Positions 4,942-58,815 of a DNA stretch of 64,000 nt are shown piece by piece (the stretch's first letter is position 1; every line of letters starts with the position of its first letter). Position numbers and translations under genes: made by a program. The notes beneath the pieces are model-generated. The model was not told where the DNA came from. It did no database searches and saw nothing but the letters and a program-made list of their open reading frames with translations. Source of the stretch: an uncultured Bacilli bacterium (GTDB lineage Bacteria > Bacillota_I > Bacilli_A > RF39 > UBA660); NCBI GenBank assembly GCA_947629205.1, contig CANRCV010000001.1:19531-83530 (forward strand), written 5' to 3'.

Positions 4942-6882
4942 TTAATTATTTATTGGTGTAAGAACGATACGGAAACTACGCTTTGATAGTCCACTATCAC
5001 CTTCATTAGAAAAAGCAAATATATTAGCTTGGATACCACTATTACTTTCGCCACCTCTCATAAACCATGGTAATTCGTTACCAATAAAACGAGCCCAACT
5101 TTCATTCCATGAATTAATTAGGTTATTACTTGTACTATATTTTTTCAACCCAAATGGTCCTAATTCTCCTGTGGCATCTCCTAATATTCTTTTATTATAA
5201 GTTGTGTAAACTGAACTATACTCATAAGCATCATAATATTTTTCATTCTCCTCCACTAAATCACTACTCCATATATTGCCATTCATATATCCCGTCACTA
5301 ATTCAAATGCACCCCCTGACATATCATATATTCCGCTATAATTTCCAGTTGTACTTGCAACGTTGCTTTTTTTGTTTTTGTAATTATAGCTTTTACCATT
5401 ATCTTGATTTGGTGTTACTATGTCATAACCATTATATTCAGTATATCCACTTGTTGGCATTTCTATTGCAGCATATCCTGTTACAAAATTTTGACTATTA
5501 TTTATCATTATTTCTGTACATATACCATCTGTACATATTCCATACTTAGAATGCGATAGATAAGCTACTGCTCCCCACTCTGTATTTTTCATCATATGGC
5601 TATCTAATTCTCTTTGATAAGCATAACTAACATCAAACATATTTTTTACTGTTATGCCTCTCCAACTATAAACATTTGGCTTTATAATAACTTTTGATGA
5701 ATTACTTTCATCTTTTTGAGCTTCTGTTGTACTGTTAGCATCTTTATATCCAGTTTCAAACTTTCCTACCCACATTCCTTTTGAACCTTCAAATGCTGTG
5801 AAGGCTGGATGTGTCATCCATTTATCCACTGCACATGAACCATCCTCTCCACTTGCATTTGGTGTTTCACAACTTGTTTCTGTATTTTCTGTATCATCTA
5901 AATCAAATTTAATTTCTATTGTTTGAGCTGCATTCTCATTTAATGGTCCATTTGCATCTGTATATTCTCCCATATTAAAGATTTTATATTTATATTTTGG
6001 TATCCATACAAAATAACTTTCGATGTTATCTTCTGGTATTGTATCTCCTTCTTTGTATTCTTTTGTATTGTCTACTAATATAACAGCATTTGCCCATTCC
6101 TTTTCTTCATAGTTATACCATTCTTCTTTTGTATTGGCTTTGGTTACTTTTCCTGTATCATCTATGATGACTGGTATTAGTTTATCATTGGTAGTTGGTT
6201 CTTCTGCTATTTCATTTGCAGTTAACATAGCTACTGGTTTACTACTTGTTTCTAATACTGGATCTGCTCCATGTAAGATTGGTTCTGTATATTCTGCTAC
6301 GGTATTCATTTTTCCATCTACTACTATTTTACTTATAAAATTTTTATTCATAGCATCATCATTGACGGTGACATCTTCATCCATCCATAGTTTTAATTTA
6401 AATTCTCTACTTTCTTGTCCTTTTAATGTTCCATTCATTAAATCTTTTGCTTCTATTGATGTATAATCATCTCCACTATAGGTGGTTACATCACTTGGAT
6501 ACTCACTTAATATTTGTTTTTGGCCACCATTTAGTTCTACTGCTACATACTTACTATCTAATATATTTTTTTCATTTTCACTACTTTCTTTTAATTTTTC
6601 TAGTTTTAATGAAAAATTAAGAGTTGTATTACATTTATTTTTTATTGTAAAACTATATGGTGTTAATTTTTGTGCTTCTTCATCTGTTATTGGGTATGCT
6701 TTTTCTAAATGAATAGCATCACTTTCATTTTCAAGAATCAAACTTAAACAATCACTTTGAATTTGATTCATACCTTGTTGTTCTGCAGTAGATGTCCACC
6801 ATGCAAAACTGGAACCTATCATTACAATTATTGTAAAGAGCATTCCTATTACTAAATATTTTTTCTTTTTACTTTTTTCCAT
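4942..6882 (-). CDS. exported two-domain protein, paralog 1: SipW/TasA-like N-terminal region plus C-terminal FGE-sulfatase (SUMF1)-like domain
   Basis: N-terminal signal/TM followed by ...SSFAWWTSTAEQ. C-terminal motifs EWGAVAYLSHSKYG, GIYDMSGGAFELVTGY, FMRGGES and SFRIVLTP parallel the FGE motifs SWxDAVAYCNW, GLYDMSGNVWEW, RGGSW and GFRC. RBS GGAGA upstream of the ATG at 6882. Confidence 0.6.
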   Translation of the reverse strand: MEKSKKKKYLVIGMLFTIIVMIGSSFAWWTSTAEQQGMNQIQSDCLSLILENESDAIHLEKAYPITDEEAQKLTPYSFTIKNKCNTTLNFSLKLEKLKESSENEKNILDSKYVAVELNGGQKQILSEYPSDVTTYSGDDYTSIEAKDLMNGTLKGQESREFKLKLWMDEDVTVNDDAMNKNFISKIVVDGKMNTVAEYTEPILHGADPVLETSSKPVAMLTANEIAEEPTTNDKLIPVIIDDTGKVTKANTKEEWYNYEEKEWANAVILVDNTKEYKEGDTIPEDNIESYFVWIPKYKYKIFNMGEYTDANGPLNENAAQTIEIKFDLDDTENTETSCETPNASGEDGSCAVDKWMTHPAFTAFEGSKGMWVGKFETGYKDANSTTEAQKDESNSSKVIIKPNVYSWRGITVKNMFDVSYAYQRELDSHMMKNTEWGAVAYLSHSKYGICTDGICTEIMINNSQNFVTGYAAIEMPTSGYTEYNGYDIVTPNQDNGKSYNYKNKKSNVASTTGNYSGIYDMSGGAFELVTGYMNGNIWSSDLVEENEKYYDAYEYSSVYTTYNKRILGDATGELGPFGLKKYSTSNNLINSWNESWARFIGNELPWFMRGGESNSGIQANIFAFSNEGDSGLSKRSFRIVLTPINN

Positions 6883-7001
6883 ATCATCAATTCTCCTATA
6901 TACAACTTATGATTGTATATAATATATATTTTACAACTTGAGGTTGTTATAGTCAATACAATTTCAAGTTGTATGATAATTTTCATTTAAGAGGTGTAAT
7001 T

Positions 7002-7223
7002 ATGAATATAGAAAGATTAAAAGAAATTCGTGAAGATAAAGATTTATATCAAAAAGACATAGCAAAAGTTTTGAATGTTTCTCAACAACAATATAATAAA
7101 TATGAATTAGGAATTAATTCCATTCCTATAGAAAAATTATATAAACTAGCAGATTTATATGAAACAAGTATTGATTATTTAGTTGGTAGAACCAATGAAA
7201 GAAAACCTTATCCTAAAAAATAA
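7002..7223 (+). CDS. XRE-family helix-turn-helix transcriptional regulator (about 73 aa), divergent from paralog 1
   Basis: Classic XRE HTH (...QKDIAKVLNVSQQQYNKYELG...). Start moved to ATG 7002, which has RBS AAGAGGTG. C-terminal tail GRTNERKPYPKK. Confidence 0.8.
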   Translation: MNIERLKEIREDKDLYQKDIAKVLNVSQQQYNKYELGINSIPIEKLYKLADLYETSIDYLVGRTNERKPYPKK

Positions 7224-38009: not shown

Positions 38010-38121
38010 ACCAGTAGGTTTTTATATTTTTATATATATAATTTATTGTTAATAATTATATTGAAAAAGTAATCCATTTGCAAGAAAATGTGTTATAATA
38101 CCCGCGAAGGAGAAAGTGTTT

Positions 38122-39471
38122 ATGGAAGATACAATTGCTGCTATTTCAACGTCTTTAGGGGTTGGAGCAATTTCTATTATTCGTGTGAGTGGAGCAAACT
38201 CTATTTCCATTGTGAATAAAATATTTCGTGGTTGTGATTTAACAAAAGTTGCTTCTCATACCATTCATTATGGGTATATTATGGATAAAGAAGAACAAAT
38301 AGATGAGGTTTTAGTTAGTGTTATGGCATCTCCTAAAACATTTACAACGGAAGATATTGTAGAAATTAATTGTCATGGAGGAATTGCTACAACAAATAAA
38401 ATACTTGAACTATTACTCGAAAATGGTTGTCGTCTTGCAGAACCTGGAGAATTTACCAAAAGAGCCTTCTTAAATGGACGAATTAGTTTGTTAGAAGCAG
38501 AATCTGTAAGTGATTTAATAGAAGCCAAAAGTGAAAAACAACGTTCTATGGCATTAAGTGGGGTAAGTGGAAGAACAACAAATTTAGTACGTGCATTAAG
38601 AGATAAAATCTTAGATGTTATTGCGAATATTGAGGTTAATATCGACTATCCAGAATACGAAGATGCTATAGAAATTACTCATGAAAATTTAAAAGAAAAA
38701 GTGGAGGATATAGAAAAAGATTTAGAACTTTTACTTAAAAATTCTAAAGTAGGAAAGTTAATAAAATCTGGTATTGATGTTGCATTAATTGGTAGACCTA
38801 ATGTTGGAAAAAGTAGTATTTTAAATGCTTTACTAAATGAAGAAAAAGCAATTGTAACGGATATTTCTGGAACAACAAGAGATGTAATTGAAGCAAAAAT
38901 GACTTTAAATGGAATTCCTATTAATTTAATGGATACAGCTGGAATTCGTGCAACAGATGACGTAGTAGAAAAAATTGGTGTTGATAAAAGTAAACAAATA
39001 CTTGAAAGTGCTGATTTAATTATTTTAGTTTTAAATAATAATGAAGAATTAACAGAGGAAGATAAAGAATTACTAGAACAAATCAAAGAGAAAACCCATC
39101 TGATCTTTATTAATAAAACGGATTTAGAAGAAAAACTCATTTTAGAACAAAATGAACATATTGTAAGAGGAAATACCAAAGAATTAAATGGGTTAGAAGA
39201 GTTAAAACAAAAAATAATGGAACTTTATCATTTAGATCAAATCCAAGAAAAAGACTTAACCTATCTTTCTAATGTACGCCAAATGGATTTAGTAAAAAAA
39301 TCTCTTACAAGTATGAATAAATTATTAGAAGATATGAAAGAAAATATTCCTGTTGATATGTTAGAAATTTACTTAAGAGAAGCCTTCGATAATTTAGGTT
39401 TACTTATTGGAGAAACCTATGAAGATGAATTAATTGATAAGTTATTTAAAAACTTTTGTTTGGGAAAATAA
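38122..39471 (+). CDS. mnmE: tRNA modification GTPase MnmE
   Basis: G-domain motifs GRPNVGKSS, DTAG and NKTD. C-terminal ...CLGK. Start set at ATG 38122, after the RBS AAGGAGAAAG. Confidence 0.9.
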   Translation: MEDTIAAISTSLGVGAISIIRVSGANSISIVNKIFRGCDLTKVASHTIHYGYIMDKEEQIDEVLVSVMASPKTFTTEDIVEINCHGGIATTNKILELLLENGCRLAEPGEFTKRAFLNGRISLLEAESVSDLIEAKSEKQRSMALSGVSGRTTNLVRALRDKILDVIANIEVNIDYPEYEDAIEITHENLKEKVEDIEKDLELLLKNSKVGKLIKSGIDVALIGRPNVGKSSILNALLNEEKAIVTDISGTTRDVIEAKMTLNGIPINLMDTAGIRATDDVVEKIGVDKSKQILESADLIILVLNNNEELTEEDKELLEQIKEKTHLIFINKTDLEEKLILEQNEHIVRGNTKELNGLEELKQKIMELYHLDQIQEKDLTYLSNVRQMDLVKKSLTSMNKLLEDMKENIPVDMLEIYLREAFDNLGLLIGETYEDELIDKLFKNFCLGK

Positions 39472-39480
39472 ATTTTACTA

Positions 39481-39545
39481 CATAGAGTAATTTTTTAATA
39501 AAAGTATAAAAAAATTACTCCACAGCGTAATTTTTTGACAAAATT
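39481..39545 (+). terminator. two tandem near-identical hairpins (TTACTACATAGAGTAA/TTACTCCACAGCGTAA), each followed by a T-run, at the mnmE/ATPase junction
   Basis: Read from the sequence. Likely an mnmE terminator duplicated. Confidence 0.45.
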
Positions 39546-39586
39546 AATATTTTTGATTATAATAAGAATAGAAAAGAGGAATATGT

Positions 39587-40792
39587 ATGATTATTCGTGA
39601 AAGATATTTAAAATTAATAAGACCATTTTATAATCAAGAATTAATTAAAGTATTAATTGGACTTAGACGTTCTGGTAAGTCTGTAATTTTAACGCAAATT
39701 ATTGATGAACTCAAAAAAGATAATATAGATGATCAACATATTATTTATATTAATTTTGAAGATTATGATTATGATGAATTAACGAATGCCAAAAGTTTAA
39801 ATAAATATATAAAAGAAAAAATGATAGATCAAAAGAAATATTATTTATTTTTTGATGAAATTCAAAATGTTGAATCTTGGGAAAAAGTTATAAATTCTTT
39901 TAGAGCAACTAAAAATGTATCCATATTTATAACAGGATCAAATAGTGATTTATTATCAAGTGATTTAGCAACGCATATTGCAGGAAGATATGTAAGTTTT
40001 AAAATAACTCCATTTACTTTTAGTGAAGTTTGCGAACTTTTAGAAATAAAAGATAAAGAGAAAATAGAAGAAGCCTTTAAAGATTATATAAAATGGGGTG
40101 GAATGCCTCAAAGATTTATGCAAACAGATGATTTATCTAAAAAAACTTATTTAAATGATATATATGATTCTATTATTATAAAAGATATAGTGAAAAGATT
40201 TAATATTAAAGATATAGATTTATTAAATAAAATTGTAACCTATGTTTTAACAACACCTGCTCAAACTTTTTCTCCTGAAAGTTTAAAAAAATATTTTGAA
40301 AGTGTTTCAAGAGGTGTATCTCTTGAAACGATTTATAACTATTTAGATTATATAACAAGAGCCAATTTAATATTTAAAGCCGAAAGATATGATATTAGAG
40401 GAAAAAGAATTTTAACAGGTAAATATAAGTATTATTTAACGGATTTAGGTTTTACTAATATACTAAGTGAAGGAAAAAAAGAAAAACTTGGTGCTTATTT
40501 AGAAAATATTGTTTATAATGAATTAATTGCAAGAGGCTATAATGTAAACATAGGAAATTTAGATAATGGAGAAATTGATTTCATCGCAACAAAATTTGAT
40601 GAAAAAATTTATGTTCAAGTAGCTTATTTACTTGCAGATGAATCGGTTATTCAAAGAGAGTTTGATGCTTATAAAAAAATAGAAGATAATTTTCCTAAAT
40701 ATGTATTATCTATGGATCATTTCGATTTTTCCAAAGATGGAATTATTCATAAAAACATTATAGATTGGTTATTAGAAGAAGAAAAAAACTAG
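39587..40792 (+). CDS. AAA+ ATPase with C-terminal DUF4143 (COG1373 family, PD-(D/E)xK-like C-terminal module), paralog 1
   Basis: Walker A GLRRSGKS. Conserved ...FITGSNS... The C-terminal ...GEIDFIA...YVQVAY... is typical of DUF4143. RBS AAGAGGAA. The gene sits between mnmE and mnmG. Confidence 0.75.
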   Translation: MIIRERYLKLIRPFYNQELIKVLIGLRRSGKSVILTQIIDELKKDNIDDQHIIYINFEDYDYDELTNAKSLNKYIKEKMIDQKKYYLFFDEIQNVESWEKVINSFRATKNVSIFITGSNSDLLSSDLATHIAGRYVSFKITPFTFSEVCELLEIKDKEKIEEAFKDYIKWGGMPQRFMQTDDLSKKTYLNDIYDSIIIKDIVKRFNIKDIDLLNKIVTYVLTTPAQTFSPESLKKYFESVSRGVSLETIYNYLDYITRANLIFKAERYDIRGKRILTGKYKYYLTDLGFTNILSEGKKEKLGAYLENIVYNELIARGYNVNIGNLDNGEIDFIATKFDEKIYVQVAYLLADESVIQREFDAYKKIEDNFPKYVLSMDHFDFSKDGIIHKNIIDWLLEEEKN

Positions 40793-40805
40793 AAGGTGAA
40801 AACGT

Positions 40806-42671
40806 ATGAAATATGAAGTTATAGTAGTTGGAGGAGGACACGCAGGTTGTGAAGCTGCTCATATGGCTGCTTTTTTAGGTAAAAAGACATTACTGATCAC
40901 AATGAATAAAAAAAATATTGCTGATATGCCTTGTAATCCATCTATTGGAGGAACTGCTAAAGGAGTTATTGTTCGTGATATAGATGCTCTAGGTGGCCTT
41001 ATGGGTAAAGTTGCAGATGAATCCCATTTTCAAATGAAAATGTTAAATAGTAAAAAAGGACCTGCGGTGCAATCTCTTCGTTGCCAAGCTGATAAAACAA
41101 CTTATCCTAAAAATATGTTAAAACGATTAGAAAATACTGAAAATTTAACCATTCAAGAAGATTTAGTAGAAGACTTAATTGTTGAAAACAATAAAATAAA
41201 AGGAATAGTGCTAGCAAATAATGAAAAAATAGAATGCGATGCCTTAATATTAACAACAGGAACGTATTTAAAAAGTAATATTTTAAGAGGTGCTGTTTCA
41301 ACAGAAGGTGGTCCACACGGAGAAGGAAGAAGCAATCATTTAAGTGATAATTTAAAACGTTTAGGTTTTACGATTCAACGTTTAAAAACCGGAACTCCTC
41401 CTAGAATTAAAGCAGATTCTATTGACTTTTCAAAATGTAGTATTGAAAAAGGGGATAATAAATATTACACCTTTTCTCACGATGATAAACCAAAATACAA
41501 AATAGAAGACCAACAAAACTGTTATTTAATTTATACGAATCAAGAAACACATCAAATTATTTTAGACAATCTAGATAAATCCAGTATGTATGGAGGGTAT
41601 GTAACAGGAGTTGGACCAAGATATTGTCCATCCATTGAAGATAAAATTGTACGTTTTAAAGATAAAGAAAGACATCAATTATTTTTAGAACCGGAAAGTA
41701 TGTATTATGATGAATGGTATATTCAAGGTTTTTCTACAAGTATGCCCGAAGATGTTCAAGAAAAAATGGTACATAGTTTAAAAGGACTCGAAAATGCGAT
41801 AATTACCAAATATGCTTATGCCATAGAATATGATGCGATAGACCCTTTACAACTAAAACCATCCTTAGAAACAAAAGTAATTGAAAACTTATTTACAGCA
41901 GGGCAAATTAACGGAACAAGTGGTTATGAAGAAGCAGCAGGACAAGGTCTAATCGCCGGAATAAACGCCGCAAGAAAATTAGAGAATAAGAGTCCATTTA
42001 TTTTAAAAAGAAATGAATCCTATATAGGTGTTTTAATTGATGATTTAGTAACGAAAGGAACAAAAGAACCTTATCGAATGCTTACATCTCGTGCTGAATA
42101 TCGTTTACTTCTTCGCCACGATAACGCAGATTTACGTTTAAGAGGTTATGCTCACGAACTAGGAACTATCACCGATGAAATGTATCAAAACTACTTAAAT
42201 CGCGTACAAAAAATAGAAGAATTAAATGACTTTTTAGATACCACAAAACTAGAACTAACCGAAGATGTAAAAGCAAAATTTCAAGAACAAAACTTTAATT
42301 TACCTTTAAATAAAATGAGTTTAAAAGAACTATTAAAAAGACCAGAAATTACATTTGAATTTTTAGATACACTTTTAAATATCCCATTTGAAGAAGATAT
42401 CAAAGAAGTCGTAAGTATTGCGATTAAATATGATGGGTACATTAAAAAAACCGAAAAAGAAATAGAAAAAATGTTAAAGTTAGAAGAAAAACAAATTCCA
42501 AAAGATATTGATTATAGCAAAGTAAATAACTTAGCAAGTGAAGCTCGTGTGAAATTAGAAAAAATAAGACCAATTTCCATTGGCCAAGCTGCAAGAATTA
42601 GTGGTGTTAATCCTGCCGATATTTCAATACTTGCTATTTACTTAAAGAAAGAGTATGGTAAAAATGACTAA
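40806..42671 (+). CDS. mnmG: tRNA uridine 5-carboxymethylaminomethyl modification enzyme MnmG (GidA)
   Basis: FAD-binding motif VIVVGGGHAGCEAA. 621 aa. Confidence 0.95.
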   Translation: MKYEVIVVGGGHAGCEAAHMAAFLGKKTLLITMNKKNIADMPCNPSIGGTAKGVIVRDIDALGGLMGKVADESHFQMKMLNSKKGPAVQSLRCQADKTTYPKNMLKRLENTENLTIQEDLVEDLIVENNKIKGIVLANNEKIECDALILTTGTYLKSNILRGAVSTEGGPHGEGRSNHLSDNLKRLGFTIQRLKTGTPPRIKADSIDFSKCSIEKGDNKYYTFSHDDKPKYKIEDQQNCYLIYTNQETHQIILDNLDKSSMYGGYVTGVGPRYCPSIEDKIVRFKDKERHQLFLEPESMYYDEWYIQGFSTSMPEDVQEKMVHSLKGLENAIITKYAYAIEYDAIDPLQLKPSLETKVIENLFTAGQINGTSGYEEAAGQGLIAGINAARKLENKSPFILKRNESYIGVLIDDLVTKGTKEPYRMLTSRAEYRLLLRHDNADLRLRGYAHELGTITDEMYQNYLNRVQKIEELNDFLDTTKLELTEDVKAKFQEQNFNLPLNKMSLKELLKRPEITFEFLDTLLNIPFEEDIKEVVSIAIKYDGYIKKTEKEIEKMLKLEEKQIPKDIDYSKVNNLASEARVKLEKIRPISIGQAARISGVNPADISILAIYLKKEYGKND

Positions 42672-43412: not shown

Positions 43413-45071
43413 ATGAATATCGACAAAAATATTCTAGAAATACCAATTGAGGACATTATTCCCAATCGTTTTCAACCAAGACTTTCATTTAACGAAGAAG
43501 GAATTACAGAACTAGCAGAGTCTATAAAACAACATGGGATTATTCAACCCCTTGTCGTAAGAAAACTTGGAGATAAGTATGAAATTATAGCTGGAGAAAG
43601 AAGATATAAAGCCGCTACAATGGCTGGTTTAACAAAAGTTCCAGTTATTATTTCTAATATAGATGATAATAAAAGTGCAGAGGTGGCTCTAGTGGAAAAT
43701 ATACAAAGAAGAAATTTAACAGCAATTGAAGAAGCAAAATCATATAAAAATCTGTTAGATAGAGGATATTTAACACAAGAACAACTTGCAAATAAAATGG
43801 GTGTATCTCAAAGTTCTATTGCCAATAAGCTACGTTTATTAAACTTAGATGAAGAGGTACAAGAAGCTTTATTAAATGAAAAAATAAGTGAAAGACATGC
43901 GAGAGCATTACTTGCACTTGAAGATAAAGAAGAACAAAAGAAATGGTTAAAAAGAATTATTGATGAAAGATTAACAGTAAGACAATTAGATTTAGAACTT
44001 AAAAAATTACAAGAAAATGGAGATTCTGCTGATAGTGATGAAATTAAATTAGTCAATATTAATCCTAATTTAGATGAAATCGTATCCAATGCAGAAGATA
44101 TTGTTGTACAAAGAGCACCACATGATGTTGCGAGTATGTTAATTCCAGAGGTACAAGAAGAACCAAAAGAAGAAATAAAAGAAGAACAAGAAACAAAACC
44201 TTCTAATAAATTCTTTAATTTTTTAGAAAATGAAGAAGCAAACATGAGTGTCATTGAACCAGATGAAATTTTAGATACATTTACAACTACTTCTGTAATG
44301 GAAAATCCTATAGAATCTACTGTAGAAGAACAACCAAAAGAACCAGTTTTAAATAATGATTCTCCTACTATAAATGAAGAGGTAACACCAATAGAAAATC
44401 CGTTTACAGATACACCAATGATAAATACCCCACAAGAAGAAAATAAAGTAGATTCAGTTGAATTATTAGATGAATTAGATGATGAAGAAGATTTACAACC
44501 AATGAAACCAGAATTAAATTCATTTATTACAGAAGATATTGTAAATGAAATTGCTAATGAACCAGATGAAGAAGCAAATGATTCTGCTATGGCAAATATC
44601 TTTGAAACTCCATCTACTGAACCAATTAATAATGAAAATACAATTGTAGAAGAAACACCAAGTATAGATTCTGTTCCTGTAATAGAACCTACACCTATAG
44701 AAGAACCAGTAAATACTCAACAAGAAGAAACTAAAACAAATGAAGAAGAACCATTTAAATCTATTTTCTTTAATCATGAAGAAGAAAAACCAGAAGAAGT
44801 AGTTTCTCCTATTGAAGATAATAAAATAGAAGAAATAGAACCAACAGTAGAAGAAAATATTGTTGATCCATTAGATAGTATTGTAACTTTAGAACCTAAT
44901 TATCAACAAAAACAAGAAGAATTAGCAGGAAGAGATTTAAAAACAGCTATTAATACTGTTCGTAATACCATTAAAGAGTTAGAAAATAAAGGCTTTCTAA
45001 TTGAAACCGAAGAGGCTGATTTAGAAGATGTTTATCATATAACCATAAAAATTGATAAAGATAATAAATAA
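43413..45071 (+). CDS. noc: ParB-family protein in the Noc position (after rsmG), carrying an unusually long (~300 aa) acidic/Pro-rich low-complexity insertion before a conserved C-terminal segment
   Basis: ParB N-terminal box (...RFQPR...IIQPLVV...IIAGERR) plus an HTH. Residues about 250-510 are E/P/T/N-rich. 552 aa against ~280 aa for typical Noc. Confidence 0.7.
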   Translation: MNIDKNILEIPIEDIIPNRFQPRLSFNEEGITELAESIKQHGIIQPLVVRKLGDKYEIIAGERRYKAATMAGLTKVPVIISNIDDNKSAEVALVENIQRRNLTAIEEAKSYKNLLDRGYLTQEQLANKMGVSQSSIANKLRLLNLDEEVQEALLNEKISERHARALLALEDKEEQKKWLKRIIDERLTVRQLDLELKKLQENGDSADSDEIKLVNINPNLDEIVSNAEDIVVQRAPHDVASMLIPEVQEEPKEEIKEEQETKPSNKFFNFLENEEANMSVIEPDEILDTFTTTSVMENPIESTVEEQPKEPVLNNDSPTINEEVTPIENPFTDTPMINTPQEENKVDSVELLDELDDEEDLQPMKPELNSFITEDIVNEIANEPDEEANDSAMANIFETPSTEPINNENTIVEETPSIDSVPVIEPTPIEEPVNTQQEETKTNEEEPFKSIFFNHEEEKPEEVVSPIEDNKIEEIEPTVEENIVDPLDSIVTLEPNYQQKQEELAGRDLKTAINTVRNTIKELENKGFLIETEEADLEDVYHITIKIDKDNK

Positions 45072-45097
45072 AGTGCTAAAAAAAACTAGCACTTTTT
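45072..45097. terminator. bidirectional terminator hairpin AGTGCTA-A8-TAGCACT followed by a T-run, between the noc-like gene and the RHH gene
   Basis: Read from the sequence. It overlaps the RHH stop codon. Confidence 0.5.
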
Positions 45098-45283
45098 ATT
45101 TTTATCCTCTTTTTCTTCCTCTTCTAATTCATTTAATACATATTCACAAGCTTGAATTACAAATCTTGAAAAATTAGATTCAGTTCCTTCTAAATATTTT
45201 TCAATTTTTTCAATTAATGGTAAAGGAAACCTAATTGTTTTTGTTTCACTTTCTTTTCTATCTATGTTTAATTTAAAAGCCAT
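45086..45283 (-). CDS. small ribbon-helix-helix (Arc/CopG-like) DNA-binding protein with an acidic tail, divergent from paralog 3
   Basis: N-terminal beta-strand KTIRFPLPL, then helices IEKIEKYL and NFSRFVIQACEYVL. RBS GGTGA. Confidence 0.5.
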   Translation of the reverse strand: MAFKLNIDRKESETKTIRFPLPLIEKIEKYLEGTESNFSRFVIQACEYVLNELEEEEKEDKNKKC

Positions 45284-45330
45284 ATTTTCACCACTTTCTT
45301 ATTACAATAAATTTTATAATAAAAATGCAA

Positions 45331-45346
45331 TGCAATATGTATTGCA
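45331..45346. promoter_or_regulatory. 16-bp perfect inverted repeat TGCAATA-TG-TATTGCA in the divergent RHH/paralog-3 promoter region (candidate operator)
   Basis: Read from the sequence. A further TGCAA half-site lies 2 bp upstream. Confidence 0.5.
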
Positions 45347-45387
45347 AAATGTAATACAAAAATGGTAAAATCAAAATAGGTGAGAAT

Positions 45388-47268
45388 ATGGAAAAAAGTA
45401 AAACAAAATATTTGATTATAGTAGGAATACTTATTATGATGTTAATTGCTATAGGTTCGGGTTATGCCTGGTGGACGTCTACTGCAGAACAAAGTGGAAT
45501 TAATCAAATTCAAAGTGATTGTTTAAAAATATCTTATACAGATGATAACCCTATAAAATTAGATACAACGTATCCTTTAACAGATAAAGAAGGAGAAGCA
45601 TTAACTCCTTATACATTTACTATACAAAATACTTGTTCTAACGCTATAGATTATACTATAAATTTAGGTATAAGTGATACTAATACTTTAAATGATGAAT
45701 ATGTTGCAGTCAAGTTAAATGATAATACGAAAAGAATATTAGATAGTTTAAAACAAACAAAAATTAAAAACTACAATAAATCTTATGAACTAGCAACAGG
45801 AATACTAAATGGAAGTGAATCAAAAGAATTTAGTTTAAGACTATGGATGGATGAACATGTAACATTAAGTGATGATGCAATAAATAAAACATTCTCAAGT
45901 AAAGTAGTAGTAGAAGCAACCTTAAATACATTAGCAAAAGTATATACAGATGATGAATTAAATGGAGCAGATCCAGTATTAAAAGATAATTTAATACCAG
46001 TAAAAATAAATGAAACAGATGGAACAGTAACTAAAGCAAATATAGAAGAAGAATGGTACAACTATAAAAATAAAGAATGGGCAAATGCCGTTATATTAAA
46101 AGATAATGGAACTATAGAAGAAGATGGAACTATCAAAGAAGAGAGTATAGAAAGTTATTTTGTATGGATACCAAAGTATAAATACAAAATCTTTAATATG
46201 GGAGAATATAATGGATTAAGTGAAGGAGCATATGAAGAAAAATCTCAAGAAATAGAAATTGAATTTGGAATCTATGATACAGTAAATAACACAATTGAGT
46301 GTACAACACCACCAAGTGGAGAAAATGGATCATGTGCAGTAGATAAATGGATGACACCATCAGCATTTACAAGTTTTGCTACAAATGGATTCTGGGTAGG
46401 TAAATTTGAAACTGGATATGATGGAGCAACTAATGATACTTTTGCTACAGGTACTACATGTAAGAATGAGGTTAATGTAACTAATGTTTCAAAAATTATA
46501 ATTAAACCAAATTCTTATTCATGGAGATGTATTAATATGGCAAATATGTATAAAAATTCATACAATTATCAAAGAGACTTAGATAGTCATATGATGAAGA
46601 ATACAGAGTGGGGAGCAGTTGCCTATCTATCACATTCCAAATATGGAACATGTGATAGTGGTAAATGTACAGAGATTAGATTGAATAACAATACAAATTA
46701 TATTACTGGATATGCAGCAGTTAATCAACCAGTAGGTGGACTAGATGTTTATAAAGAATATATAGGTACCACGCCTGGTATAGATAACGATAAAACTTAT
46801 AACTATAAAAATAAAAAAAGTACAATAGCAAGCACAACTGGAAATTATAGTGGAATTTATGACTTATCAGGAGATTGTTGGGAAATCGTAATGGGGGTTA
46901 CAACTAGTGCCACTAGTGCAAAAGATGCAACTTTAGAAAATATACAATTAGGAACATCAGGATTAACTAAAGATGATATAAAAGATAGAAAATATGTAGA
47001 TTTATATACAAGTGGTACATACTTACAATATAATAGAAGAATACTTGGTGATGCAACAGGAGAGATGGGAACGTTTAGATTATCACCTGAAAAGAGTGGT
47101 AGGATACGAGGATCTTGGTATAATGATCTAGGATCACAAATTGTTTCAAACAGCTCTTTTATTCGAGGTGGATCGTTTGGGCAAGGTGTGGAAGGTGGAT
47201 CTTTTGAGTTTTCTATGGGTGTTTATATTAGAAATGATTTTTCTTTCCGTATAGTCTTAACACCATAA
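45388..47268 (+). CDS. exported TasA-like/FGE-like two-domain protein, paralog 3 (626 aa)
   Basis: Signal peptide followed by GSGYAWWTSTAEQSGINQIQSDC. C-terminal motifs EWGAVAYLSHSKYG, GIYDLSGDCWEIV, FIRGGSFGQG and FSFRIVLTP give the closest FGE-like match of the three paralogs. Confidence 0.65.
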   Translation: MEKSKTKYLIIVGILIMMLIAIGSGYAWWTSTAEQSGINQIQSDCLKISYTDDNPIKLDTTYPLTDKEGEALTPYTFTIQNTCSNAIDYTINLGISDTNTLNDEYVAVKLNDNTKRILDSLKQTKIKNYNKSYELATGILNGSESKEFSLRLWMDEHVTLSDDAINKTFSSKVVVEATLNTLAKVYTDDELNGADPVLKDNLIPVKINETDGTVTKANIEEEWYNYKNKEWANAVILKDNGTIEEDGTIKEESIESYFVWIPKYKYKIFNMGEYNGLSEGAYEEKSQEIEIEFGIYDTVNNTIECTTPPSGENGSCAVDKWMTPSAFTSFATNGFWVGKFETGYDGATNDTFATGTTCKNEVNVTNVSKIIIKPNSYSWRCINMANMYKNSYNYQRDLDSHMMKNTEWGAVAYLSHSKYGTCDSGKCTEIRLNNNTNYITGYAAVNQPVGGLDVYKEYIGTTPGIDNDKTYNYKNKKSTIASTTGNYSGIYDLSGDCWEIVMGVTTSATSAKDATLENIQLGTSGLTKDDIKDRKYVDLYTSGTYLQYNRRILGDATGEMGTFRLSPEKSGRIRGSWYNDLGSQIVSNSSFIRGGSFGQGVEGGSFEFSMGVYIRNDFSFRIVLTP

Positions 47269-47284
47269 TGAACAAAAATGCAAA

Positions 47285-47328
47285 AAATGTCAATTTTGTA
47301 TTCTGTGGAATACAAAATTGACATTTTC
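47285..47328 (+). terminator. 20-bp perfect-stem hairpin AAAATGTCAATTTTGTATTC-TGTG-GAATACAAAATTGACATTTT followed by a T-rich tract
   Basis: Read from the sequence. The stem is unusually long for a terminator. Confidence 0.55.
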
Positions 47329-47368
47329 TTTTCATTGTGCTACCATTTTAAATAGTGAGGGGATACAA

Positions 47369-48577
47369 ATGATTATTCGTGAAAACTATTTAAAAAAAAT
47401 AAGACCATTTTATGATGTTGATTTAATTAAAGTTATAACGGGAATTAGAAGATGTGGAAAAACAATTACTTTTTTACAAATTATGGATGAAATAAAAGAA
47501 AAAGGTGTTCCAGAAGAAAATATTATTTATATAAACTTTGAATTAAAAAAATATTCTTTTATTAAAAATGATGATGATTTATATCAATACATAAAAGAGA
47601 ATATGAAAAATAAAAAGAAATATTATTTATTTTTGGATGAAATTCAAAATGTTTTAAAATGGGAATTAACAATTAATTCACTTAAAGCCGAATATAATGA
47701 CAAAATATCTATTTTTATAACGGGTTCCAATAGTGATTTATTATCTAGTGAACTTGCTACCCATATTGCTGGGAGATATGTAAGTTTTCAAATACATCCT
47801 TTTACTTTTGAAGAGGTATGTGAATTTAAAAAAATCAAAAATAAAAATAAATATGAATTAGAAAGTGAATTTGAAAATTATTTATTATGGGGTGGAATGC
47901 CACAAAGACTTATATTTAAAGAAAAAGAGGAAATAAATGCTTATTTTATAGATGTACTTAATTCTATTATAAAAGATGTTGTTGAAAGATTTAAAATAAA
48001 AGATATTGATTTATTTAATCGTATTTTAGAATATATTATTACAACACCTTCTCAAATTTTTTCTGTAGAAAGTATTCAAAAGTATTTTGAATCAGAAAAT
48101 AGAAAAGTAACCAAAAATACAATATATAATTATTTAGATTATTTATGTAAAACTTTTTTAATTCAAAAAGTAGAACGTTATGATGTACGTGGTAAAAAAA
48201 TATTGCAAGGAAAATTTAAGTATTATTTAACGGATTTAGGATTAGGTCAAATAATGAATGCTTCTAAAAGAGTTCAATTAGGAGCTTATTTAGAAAATGT
48301 TGTTTATAATGAATTAATTTATCGTGGATATGATGTTAAAATTGGAACGCTTCCTAAAGGCGAAATTGACTTTATTGCTGAAAAAGATGGAGCAAAAGAA
48401 TATTATCAAGTTTGTCTTTATGTGGGTGATGATGAAAAAATAATTGATCGAGAATTTAATACATATAAAAATATTAAAGATAATTATCCTAAATATGTAA
48501 TTTCAATGGATAAATTTGATTTATCAAGTGAAGGAATTATCCATAAGAATATAATTGATTGGCTATTAAACAAGTAA
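47369..48577 (+). CDS. AAA+ ATPase with C-terminal DUF4143, paralog 2 (~60% identical to the copy at 39587-40792)
   Basis: Walker A GIRRCGKT. Collinear with the other copy throughout. Start trimmed to ATG 47369 (RBS GTGAGGGG). Confidence 0.75.
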   Translation: MIIRENYLKKIRPFYDVDLIKVITGIRRCGKTITFLQIMDEIKEKGVPEENIIYINFELKKYSFIKNDDDLYQYIKENMKNKKKYYLFLDEIQNVLKWELTINSLKAEYNDKISIFITGSNSDLLSSELATHIAGRYVSFQIHPFTFEEVCEFKKIKNKNKYELESEFENYLLWGGMPQRLIFKEKEEINAYFIDVLNSIIKDVVERFKIKDIDLFNRILEYIITTPSQIFSVESIQKYFESENRKVTKNTIYNYLDYLCKTFLIQKVERYDVRGKKILQGKFKYYLTDLGLGQIMNASKRVQLGAYLENVVYNELIYRGYDVKIGTLPKGEIDFIAEKDGAKEYYQVCLYVGDDEKIIDREFNTYKNIKDNYPKYVISMDKFDLSSEGIIHKNIIDWLLNK

Positions 48578-57495: not shown

Positions 57496-57558
57496 TATTC
57501 TTGAATTGCAAAACATATAATTAAATTATATAATTATAGAATAAAGGAATGTGATTTG

Positions 57559-58815
57559 ATGCAAAAATTAGTTATTCAAGGTGGAAACACATTAGAGGGA
57601 ACAATACGTATTAATGGAGCAAAAAATAGTGTAGTTGCTCTTTTACCTGCAGCCATTTTAAGTGATGAAGAAACCATTATTTATAATGTTCCTAAAATTA
57701 CAGATGTTGATGTATTAAAAGAAATAATTGAACTTTTAAATGGAAAATTAGTAGTAGAAAAAGATTCTATTAAAATTGATTCGAGTCATATTATAAACAC
57801 AACCATTCCCGAAGAATTATCAAATAAATTAAGAGCTTCTTACTATTTTATGGGGGCACTACTTGCTAAATTTAAACATGTTGAAATTTATTTCCCTGGA
57901 GGATGTAATTTTGGGGCTCGTCAAATTGATTTTCATTTAAAAGGATTTGAACTTTTAGGGGCTACAATTAAAGAAGAAAATAATAAATTTATTATTGATG
58001 CTAAAGAATTAATAGGTTGTCCTATTGCCCTAAATTTTGCTAGTGTAGGAGCTACGATTAACTTAATGCTTGCAGCAGTAAAAGCTAAAGGTCAAACCAC
58101 TATTTATAATGCTGCCAAAGAACCAGAGATTGTCAATGTTGCTTCTTTTTTAAACAATATGGGAGCCAAAATTCGTGGAGCAGGAACAAGTACAATAAAG
58201 ATTACAGGAGTAGAAAAATTAGGACATGCAATGGTCGATGTTATTCCTGATCGAATAGAAGCTGGAACTTATATTATTGCTGGTGCATTATTAGGAAAAA
58301 ATTTAACAATTTCGAATATTATTCCTGAACATTTATCTAGTTTACTTGCCAAATTAAAAGAAATGAATGTTGAGTATACCCAAACAATTGATTCGATTAC
58401 GATTAATAAATGTACTAACTTAAAAGCTACCAATATTACAACGGGAGTATATCCAGGTTATCCAACGGATTTAGCGCAACCCATCTGTGTATTACTTGCA
58501 AATGCTAAGGGAACAAGTAAAGTAACTGAAACCATTTATGCAAAAAGAATGGGGCATGTCAAATACTTACAACAAATGGGTGCTAATATAACGATTCAAG
58601 AGAATACTGAAATTATAGAAGGACCAACAAAGTTTTATGGAACGAATGTGGAAGCAAGTGATTTAAGAGCAGGAGCAACTCTTTTCCTAGCTGCTTTAGT
58701 TGCAGACGGAGAAACAACCATAACAAACATTCAATATATTTTAAGAGGATATGAAAACTTAGTCAAAAAACTTTCAAACGTTGGTGCTAATATAACAATA
58801 AAAGAAATAGAATAG
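57559..58815 (+). CDS. murA: UDP-N-acetylglucosamine 1-carboxyvinyltransferase
   Basis: ...IQGGNTLEGTIRINGAKNS... Active-site Cys region. 418 aa. Confidence 0.9.
   Translation: MQKLVIQGGNTLEGTIRINGAKNSVVALLPAAILSDEETIIYNVPKITDVDVLKEIIELLNGKLVVEKDSIKIDSSHIINTTIPEELSNKLRASYYFMGALLAKFKHVEIYFPGGCNFGARQIDFHLKGFELLGATIKEENNKFIIDAKELIGCPIALNFASVGATINLMLAAVKAKGQTTIYNAAKEPEIVNVASFLNNMGAKIRGAGTSTIKITGVEKLGHAMVDVIPDRIEAGTYIIAGALLGKNLTISNIIPEHLSSLLAKLKEMNVEYTQTIDSITINKCTNLKATNITTGVYPGYPTDLAQPICVLLANAKGTSKVTETIYAKRMGHVKYLQQMGANITIQENTEIIEGPTKFYGTNVEASDLRAGATLFLAALVADGETTITNIQYILRGYENLVKKLSNVGANITIKEIE

Follow-up and report, generated by a model that had tools for sequence, protein, structure and literature searches.

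The 64-kb stretch of DNA analysed here (64,000 nucleotides, nt; the window) is the AT-rich (27% GC) origin region of an uncultured Bacilli bacterium. Its segment 39472-40805, between the tRNA-modification genes mnmE and mnmG, forms a self-contained cassette with a single gene, a member of the PDC-S01 family (AAA_14 + DUF4143, COG1373) that we call ATPase1. Two palindromic repeats in front of this gene very probably belong to the promoter region of the cassette and not to mnmE, and the architecture that they form with the promoter is operator-like and family-wide. This architecture is the useful outcome of the present study; the unusual insertion with a scar that had headed an earlier, sequence-only reading of the segment proved ordinary in the one respect and wrong in the other. 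Judged from the architecture and from the co-variation of repeats and protein, ATPase1 is probably an autoregulated cassette whose product binds its own operator.

In the window, dnaA and dnaN are encoded on the minus strand, and rnpA-yidC-jag-mnmE-[ATPase1]-mnmG-rsmG-parB diverge from them on the plus strand. An ATPase of 401 amino acids (aa) with the Walker A motif GLRRSGKS had been noticed between mnmE and mnmG, together with a second copy of its gene, about 60% identical, at 47369-48577 (ATPase2 in the following). Both observations are confirmed: the first gene lies at 39587-40792, and the full-length comparison of the two proteins gives 60% identity. For ATPase2, the TTG start at 47318 of a mechanical open reading frame (ORF) call is unlikely, and the ATG start is used here. 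The features are as follows, with coordinates counted from the first nucleotide of the window.

38116-39471, plus strand: mnmE, left flank; TAA stop at 39469-39471; Pfam TrmE_N, MnmE_helical and MMR_HSR1; orthologues in 80 related loci
39475-39490, no strand assigned: distal repeat (site 1), TTACTACATAGAGTAA, a TTAC-N8-GTAA palindrome followed by T6, 3 nt after the mnmE stop
39509-39536, no strand assigned: proximal repeat (site 2), A6-7 TTACTCCACAGCGTAA T6, with the 16-mer at 39515-39530; abuts and overlaps the -35 box
39535-39563, plus strand: sigma-70 promoter of the cassette, TTGACA-17 nt-TATAAT, perfect consensus
39574-39580, plus strand: ribosome-binding site of ATPase1, AAGAGGA, 6 nt 5' of the ATG, as read from the sequence
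39587-40792, plus strand: ATPase1 (PDC-S01, AAA_14-DUF4143 protein), 401 aa, ATG start; from Pfam, PADLOC, AlphaFold2 (AF2) and Foldseek
39587-40042, plus strand: AAA+ domain of ATPase1; Walker A at 39659-39682, Walker B at 39854-39859
40055-40201, plus strand: lid of ATPase1
40214-40435, plus strand: winged helix of ATPase1
40481-40774, plus strand: PD-(D/E)xK-fold domain of ATPase1
40793-40805, plus strand: ATPase1-mnmG spacer, 13 nt; contains the mnmG ribosome-binding site AAGGTGA
40806-42671, plus strand: mnmG, right flank; Pfam GIDA at 1.4e-162
47270-47346, plus strand: promoter region of ATPase2, with an imperfect distal half-site GAACAAAAAT and the promoter TTGACA-17-TACCAT
47284-47327, plus strand: palindrome of ATPase2 with 20-bp arms and the core ATTTTGTAT-N8-ATACAAAAT; the -35 box lies inside the 3' arm
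47369-48577, plus strand: ATPase2, the second PDC-S01 paralogue, 402 aa from the ATG

Operator-like repeats on the cassette promoter

The 16-mers of sites 1 and 2 are identical at 13 of 16 positions, each is followed by TTTTTT, and site 1 lies 40 bp upstream of site 2; the repeats extend to two 37-nt copies with 78% identity and a spacing of 40 nt. Sequences and T-runs had been quoted correctly in the sequence-only reading, and only the coordinates had to be amended, the two elements lying at 39475-39490 and 39515-39530. The combination TTAC-N8-GTAATTTT occurs in the window here only (expected number 0.07; 0 of 100 shuffles reach the count), the half-site motifs of both ATPases are found nowhere else in it, and TTGACA-17-TATAAT at 39535-39563 is the sole 12/12 promoter match between 35.5 and 50.7 kb.

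The upstream DNA was compared with that of the 92% identical orthologue, of homologues with 82-85% identity in unrelated contexts and of 80 metagenomic loci (numbered L) at 63-85% identity. Homology between contexts begins at the distal repeat and stops at the stop codon of the gene; promoter and ORF thus form a mobile cassette. The gene is found together with its repeats in at least 18 other contexts, for example after pnp or beside a type I restriction-modification system (hsdMSR), and nearly every copy, in each clade, features a perfect TTGACA-17-TATAAT promoter, an inverted repeat directly 5' of it and a further repeat copy upstream. This layout is anchored at the -35 box: one direct half-site is distal, near -50, the other is proximal and abuts the -35, and an inverted one lies near -25. 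Of 40 dereplicated upstream regions, 32 have all three half-sites, compared with 1.9 for shuffles and 2.8% for random genomic 70-mers of the same sources; the direct half-sites are exactly 40 bp apart in 26 of the 40 regions and 39-41 bp apart in 29.

Four clades and a Moraxella plasmid show this layout, with a half-site sequence that depends on the clade of the protein. It reads (C)GTAAT in the clade of ATPase1 (clade A), TAAACAAAAT in a clade of 69% identity, GTACAAAAT or ATACAAAAT in the clade of ATPase2 and TGAAAGATTTT in the L033 clade, which has an additional copy within the promoter spacer. The homologue on the Moraxella osloensis plasmid (39% identity) is preceded by AATTGGAAAT repeats, again 40 bp apart, and the copy on a Lactobacillus gasseri plasmid has TATACAAAAT-type sites on either side of its -10 box. 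The 32 unique upstream regions of clade A share the outer TTAC and GTAAT and differ in the inner 8 nt; the counterpart of site 1 is, in most homologues, a lone (C)GTAAT half-site at the same distance. ATPase2 of the window shares the layout of ATPase1 with a different half-site sequence. A scan of viral contigs gave four loci, three of which (L184, L185, L186) have repeats flanking the promoter; the fourth, L183, has a hairpin in the 5' untranslated region only. We found no paper on PDC-S01, DUF4143 or COG1373 that describes such a promoter and repeat architecture.

It is unlikely that the repeats act as RNA, that is as weak bidirectional terminators or insulators of the A-tract/stem/T-tract type that shield the cassette promoter from read-through. 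Site 1 folds at -2.8 kcal/mol (z score -1.3), no better than shuffles, and site 2 with its A and T tracts reaches -6.5 kcal/mol (z score -4.9) solely through pairing of these tracts; for genuine terminators of the window, values of -9 to -10 kcal/mol are obtained. Neither site was called by the terminator scan, and a comparison with Rfam gave no match near 39.4-39.6 kb, only a sub-threshold chance match of mir-548 to the palindrome at 47.3 kb. A function at the RNA level would agree with the z score of site 2, with the palindrome of ATPase2, which folds at -22.9 kcal/mol and is flagged at 47284-47327 on both strands by the terminator scan, and with the upstream A-tract, which is conserved in clade A. 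However, most homologues lack a U-tract after the stem (TAAAT or TA-TTGACA is present instead), and the outer stem bases TTAC/GTAA do not co-vary but are invariant, with freely varying bases next to the loop. The distal copy, moreover, is mostly a lone half-site that is unable to form a hairpin and yet keeps the exact 40-bp phasing, and the L033 clade and the L. gasseri plasmid have further copies inside or downstream of the core promoter.

It is likewise improbable that the repeats serve something else, either a host regulator or the movement of the cassette as recombination or targeting sites. The distal repeat does coincide with the boundary of the cassette, and serine recombinase genes flank the plasmid copies, no mobility mechanism being otherwise evident. 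Against this stand the lack of any recombinase or second gene that is consistently linked in about 20 chromosomal contexts and the one-sided position of the repeats relative to the gene. Half-site and ATPase clade change together and two versions coexist in this genome, which argues for a specificity determinant encoded by the cassette, of which the ATPase is the sole encoded product.

That the hairpins are a duplicated intrinsic terminator of mnmE, left as the scar of an insertion event, is hardly credible: each 16-mer can form a 5-bp stem followed by T6, exactly at the left junction, but the fold of site 1 is weak, most homologues have TAAAT where the window has the T-run, homologues located behind pnp, hsdR, mfd and other genes are preceded by these elements as well, relatives without the insertion have no terminator to duplicate (their spacer is 7-25 nt long), and both repeats lie 5' of the gene with no counterpart at the 3' junction. 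Taken together, the facts on the repeats exclude the terminator or scar, render a role at the RNA level unlikely and fit protein-binding operator DNA of the cassette. TTACTCCACA was also considered as a DnaA box; it matches the consensus at 7 of 9 positions and the other site at 5 of 9, and the assignment was dropped, the element being present at non-origin loci as well.

Domain architecture and a predicted mechanism of autoregulation

As modelled, ATPase1 is an Orc1/Cdc6-like AAA+ ATPase with a lid, a winged helix and a C-terminal domain of the PD-(D/E)xK fold. Pfam matches are AAA_14 (PF13173; 2.3e-36, 125 bits at a cut-off of 27) and DUF4143 (PF13635; 1.7e-17, 64 bits at a cut-off of 28.1). 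Walker A (GLRRSGKS) spans residues 25-32 and Walker B is D90-E91; GxxxxGKS and D90-E91 are invariant in 65 diverse homologues. An AF2 model built with 34 homologues (predicted local distance difference test, pLDDT, 76) comprises an AAA+ base (residues 1-152), a lid (157-205), a winged helix (210-283) and a C-terminal domain (299-396) of alpha-beta-beta-beta-alpha-beta topology. In comparison with the PDB by Foldseek, it matches Orc1/Cdc6 on origin DNA, ORC/Cdc6 subunits (ORC1-5), RFC and RuvB at E values of about 1e-7. A sequence search of the PDB gave no match at E <=1, NCBIfam none for ATPase1 or ATPase2, and the Cdc6/ORC models of Pfam none either, AAA_14, DUF4143 and a sub-threshold ATPase_2 being the only Pfam matches.

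The order of AAA+ base, lid and winged helix is that of archaeal Orc1/Cdc6, such as Cdc6-1/Cdc6-3 of S. solfataricus on origin DNA (PDB 2qby). ATPase1 differs from these proteins by an identity of only 11-13%, a template modelling (TM) score of 0.3 for the whole chain and the extra C-terminal nuclease-fold domain. Archaeal orc1 genes adjoin repeated binding sites; repeats, its putative binding sites, adjoin the ATPase1 gene too.

The C-terminal domain (110 residues) was also modelled alone (pLDDT 87), and Foldseek matched it to Bax1, McrC, NucS, Can2/Card1, Hjc and EcoRV. The likeness to Bax1, McrC, NucS, the nuclease domains of Can2/Card1 and Hjc has E values of 1e-4 to 1e-2 and TM scores of 0.45-0.6. 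A PD-(D/E)xK-like fold of the DUF4143 module, as the sequence-only reading had predicted, is thus borne out, and DUF4143 had been placed in this superfamily by Steczkiewicz et al. 2012 (PMC3424549). Conserved residues of the domain are E306, E329, D331, Q344-V345, R357, E358 and K371, the acidic E306, E329 and D331 being in the places expected for PD-(D/E)xK nucleases.

Seven of seven positions that are fixed differently in three clades lie in helix 3 of the winged helix (246, 256) or in the loop 290-296, which would be compatible with clade-specific DNA recognition. Pfam FUR (PF01475), a winged-helix model, matches between AAA_14 and DUF4143 in the L033-clade proteins P0250, P0253, P0260, P0296, P0313 and P0351; these matches lend independent support, at the level of sequence, to a putative winged helix for DNA binding in the central part of the protein.

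The proposed mechanism starts from these predictions. We lean slightly towards the repeats being the operator of the protein itself, which ATPase1 would bind through its winged helix and possibly also the 290-296 loop. At a distance of 40 bp, two protein units would then cover the -35 box and hold an intrinsically maximal promoter repressed; the outcome would be negative autoregulation, a usual arrangement for nucleases that may be toxic. The paralogues ATPase1 and ATPase2 would be regulated independently because their operators differ. Read-through would keep mnmG-rsmG expressed, since the repeats terminate poorly and mnmG begins 13 nt after the stop codon. Neither a terminator nor a strong promoter lies in the ATPase1-mnmG spacer, and judged from the spacing, mnmG is probably co-transcribed with, or through, the cassette. 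Most speculatively, the cellular job of ATPase1 could be the ATP-dependent recognition, possibly also cleavage, of foreign DNA in defence against phages or plasmids.

In iteron-plasmid Rep proteins, controller (C) proteins of restriction-modification systems and toxin-antitoxin operators, direct and inverted sites overlap the strong promoter of the gene for the binding protein. The layout on the ATPase1 promoter resembles these autorepressed operators and by analogy may imply control of the dose of a potentially harmful product. Rep, C proteins and toxin-antitoxin regulators have no relation to ATPase1 in sequence or fold, the binder predicted here being an AAA+ ATPase with a winged helix, and the 40-bp phasing with the three-half-site layout is specific to the PDC-S01 family. 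For the family as a whole we put forward tentatively, at close to even chances, that PDC-S01 proteins are sequence-specific DNA binders that recognise clade-specific half-sites in a fixed, 40-bp-phased layout on their own consensus promoter.

Several observations weigh against parts of this proposal. Autoregulation of ATPase1 is predicted from architecture and co-variation only. Upstream regions are homologous within clades, so that the counts for the layout (32 of 40) and the 40-bp spacing (26 of 40) are not independent events and the real sample size is about five distinct versions of the half-site. The cluster of clade-specific positions at 290-296 may reflect mere variability of a loop (pLDDT <50). 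The 90% identical orthologue of ATPase2 in the sister species (L168 8001-9263; GCA_947631035 contig 1) keeps the proximal half-site only. Finally, the third motif of the nuclease fold reads Q344-V-(A/C/T), and the canonical lysine of the (D/E)xK strand, by which PD-(D/E)xK nucleases differ from this subfamily, is absent throughout it; nuclease activity is therefore uncertain, and catalysis may proceed through K371 or R357 or may have been lost.

The L168 orthologue of ATPase2 is found in another neighbourhood (PTS EIIB, CotZ-like), where the terminator of the upstream gene precedes the half-site; after the species had separated, the second copy therefore moved or underwent rearrangement. An ORF of 419 aa at 57556-58815, of the same length as the mechanical ORF of ATPase2, was considered as a third copy of the family and proved unrelated.

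A further reading takes the protein for an ORC- or DnaA-like auxiliary factor of replication or chromosome organisation with iteron-like repeats, unrelated to defence. Its merits are the best structural matches, which are Orc1/Cdc6 on origin DNA, the presence of two copies within 13 kb of oriC, with an origin-proximal slot that was hit twice, and the parallel of archaeal orc1 genes next to their binding repeats. We nevertheless regard it as very improbable: close homologues reside at many non-origin loci and on plasmids with replicons of their own, a nuclease-fold domain is fused to the ATPase, there are only about three half-sites and no AT-rich unwinding element is evident, and the gene is not essential because it is absent from most relatives.

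The mnmE-mnmG junction as an insertion slot

ATPase1 is almost certainly an insertion into an otherwise tight mnmE-mnmG junction, in line with the sequence-only reading in this respect. Synteny was examined in 80 loci around mnmE homologues, onto which the proteins of the window were mapped; mnmG follows mnmE on the same strand in 71 of them. The nearest species-level relatives by mnmE (GTDB) are gut metagenome-assembled genomes labelled uncultured Bacilli, Tenericutes or 'CAG:605', with 57-76% identity of mnmE. The gap between the two genes measures 7-141 nt in 55 of the 71 loci, mostly 8-25 nt with just the ribosome-binding site of mnmG, and 7-20 nt in the closest relatives without the insert (L001 and L002), to whose ancestral spacer the nucleotides 40793-40805 of the window correspond. 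Adjacency of mnmE and mnmG is thus the rule among these relatives; to call it near-universal across bacteria was an overstatement, since in E. coli mnmE adjoins yidC, and mnmG-rsmG lies across oriC from there.

Nor is the position unusual, as had been supposed. In the remaining 16 of the 71 loci the gap measures 0.4-3 kb and holds unrelated cargo; genes found in the slot of relatives encode a ZIP transporter, GNAT, GpsA, ATP-grasp, TM2 and DUF2752 membrane proteins and proteins without assignment. In L033/L170 the slot is filled by another AAA_14/DUF4143 gene, 40% identical to ATPase1. Because the two occupants are only 40% identical and each has relatives of 77-85% identity in other contexts, the family has inserted twice, independently, into the same spacer. 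The insertion itself is therefore ordinary, an accessory gene of a common, known family in a variable slot of a gut Bacilli (RF39-like) lineage.

The sister species (L081-84, GCA_947631035; also L187-188) carries a 92% identical orthologue of ATPase1 in the same slot, with flanking proteins of 74-94% identity. Since the orthologue occupies the same slot, the insertion predates the split of the two species. In L081 the gene, its place and the flanks are conserved, so that it is inherited vertically there, and the two repeats are present too; of the observation that would refute the sequence-only reading, a vertically inherited gene with conserved flanks and without the hairpin duplication, one half is thus seen. 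The ratio of nonsynonymous to synonymous substitution rates (dN/dS) between the two species is 0.078 for ATPase1 and 0.05-0.20 for its neighbours. ATPase1 is under purifying selection and has been retained as a functional gene since the split. Its GC content (0.23; 0.095 at third codon positions, GC3) is inside the range of the neighbouring genes, and composition is therefore uninformative on a foreign origin.

No target-site duplication or terminal inverted repeats were found, no repeat pair bridges 39472 and 40793-40805, and the ORF list has no recombinase gene inside the insert. The plasmid copies on Moraxella osloensis pYHS3 (L189) and L. gasseri pLgVSI47_2 (L190) are flanked by serine 'recombinase family' genes, the Moraxella copy also by Fic and BrnA genes; the recombinase flanks may hint at movement of the cassette between replicons.

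The converse, that the gene is ancestral to the mnmE-mnmG cluster of the lineage and was lost repeatedly in relatives, is very unlikely. A family member does occupy the slot in two separate groups (the window and L081; L033 and L170), and selection on ATPase1 is as strong as on core genes. The occupants, however, share only the 40% identity given above, compared with 58% for mnmE and 73% for mnmG, they have their closer relatives in other contexts, and at least 55 losses would be needed, each leaving a seamless spacer of 8-25 nt.

Further observations concern the same gene cluster. The synonymous divergence (dS) of ATPase1 from its L081 orthologue (6001-7197) is 0.53, below the 0.71-0.96 of the flanking genes; possible causes are the extreme AT bias at third codon positions (GC3 0.095) or a later exchange of the cassette between lineages. 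In L033 (3741-3920) and L170 (5185-5300) a TTGCTA-17-TATAAT promoter and a hairpin lie between the cassette and mnmG, which apparently gained a promoter of its own there, unlike in the window. The jag-mnmE interval is variable as well, with 0.6-2.2 kb of extra DNA in L003, L005, L011, L021, L036, L037, L051, L052, L061 and L074; several junctions of the origin cluster are therefore recurrent landing sites in this lineage.

Downstream of mnmG, parB (43413-45071, plus strand) encodes 552 aa, about double the usual length, of which ParB_N and HTH_ParB match the first ~200 residues only, leaving the C-terminal half unassigned; parB of the sister species encodes 564 aa. A 65-aa ORF (45086-45283, minus strand) matches the YlcI/YnfO family (NCBIfam NF041551, 3.7e-9) and is divergent from orf626; the intergenic region 45284-45387 contains TGCAAT/ATTGCA repeats and resembles another small regulator with its operator. 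The gene orf626 (626 aa, 45388-47268, plus strand) lies just 5' of ATPase2, whose other neighbour is a PBP gene, and has no match in Pfam, NCBIfam or PADLOC; a partial match with 34-39% identity is found after parB in the sister species (L081). An ORF of equal length (626 aa) in the mnmE-mnmG gap of L037, considered as its counterpart, has no similarity to it.

The PDC-S01 family and the question of defence

ATPase1 matches the PADLOC profile PDC-S01 (PDLC04787) over its full length (2.9e-150; residues 1-398 on profile positions 10-409 of 412), as does ATPase2 at 1.5e-144, and shares with this single-gene system both Pfam domains. The family is large, with 13,862 clusters at 50% identity (E <=1e-3) and members on 241 plasmids. 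PDC-S01, in the literature a fusion of an ATPase with a PD-(D/E)xK domain, is reported to be the fourth commonest 'defence' candidate across prokaryotes and is unvalidated (PMC12988326); published surveys count it among the most frequent defence candidates in prokaryotes, in archaea and in rumen microbiomes and rank it first among the single loci of rumen genomes (PMC12988326, PMC13356809). A function called unknown in the sequence-only reading can thus be updated to that of a PADLOC candidate, with the reservation that the candidate remains unvalidated. No study of mechanism or structure came up in our literature search on DUF4143, COG1373, PF13173/PF13635 and PDC-S01, and the text of the preprint of Payne et al. 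does not mention PDC-S01 by name.

A function of ATPase1 in defence against phages or plasmids is possible but somewhat doubtful, its basis being the enrichment of the family next to defence genes. Homologues with 82-85% identity lie beside genes of type I restriction-modification, an AbiLi-like ATPase, type II methyltransferases and PDC-S62; others follow pnp or lie elsewhere. Two findings speak against a role in defence. Many copies, including both of the window, reside among housekeeping genes and not in defence islands, ATPase1 differing from the usual picture of PDC-S01 by its place between tRNA-modification genes at the origin. In addition, the one published assay of a PDC-S01 representative, with T7, T5 and T4 on E. 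coli B, does not list it with the systems reported to be protective (bioRxiv 10.1101/2024.09.26.614923). A caution applies to such heterologous tests: with native promoters they may be silent, the gene being tightly repressed if the proposed autoregulation holds.

For the lineage, recurrent landing sites at mnmE-mnmG and jag-mnmE matter wherever synteny of the origin cluster is used as a marker. For the family, repeats that co-vary with the clade of the protein on a perfect promoter predict specific DNA binding and self-repression by that protein. If this is true, an ORC-like AAA+ ATPase-nuclease would police its own expression, and paralogues in one genome would be orthogonal by divergence of their operators. 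A recognition code, relating helix 3 of the winged helix and the 290-296 loop to the half-site, would then be readable from sequence, and the operators would provide a first experimental handle on the DNA that is targeted by PDC-S01 proteins.

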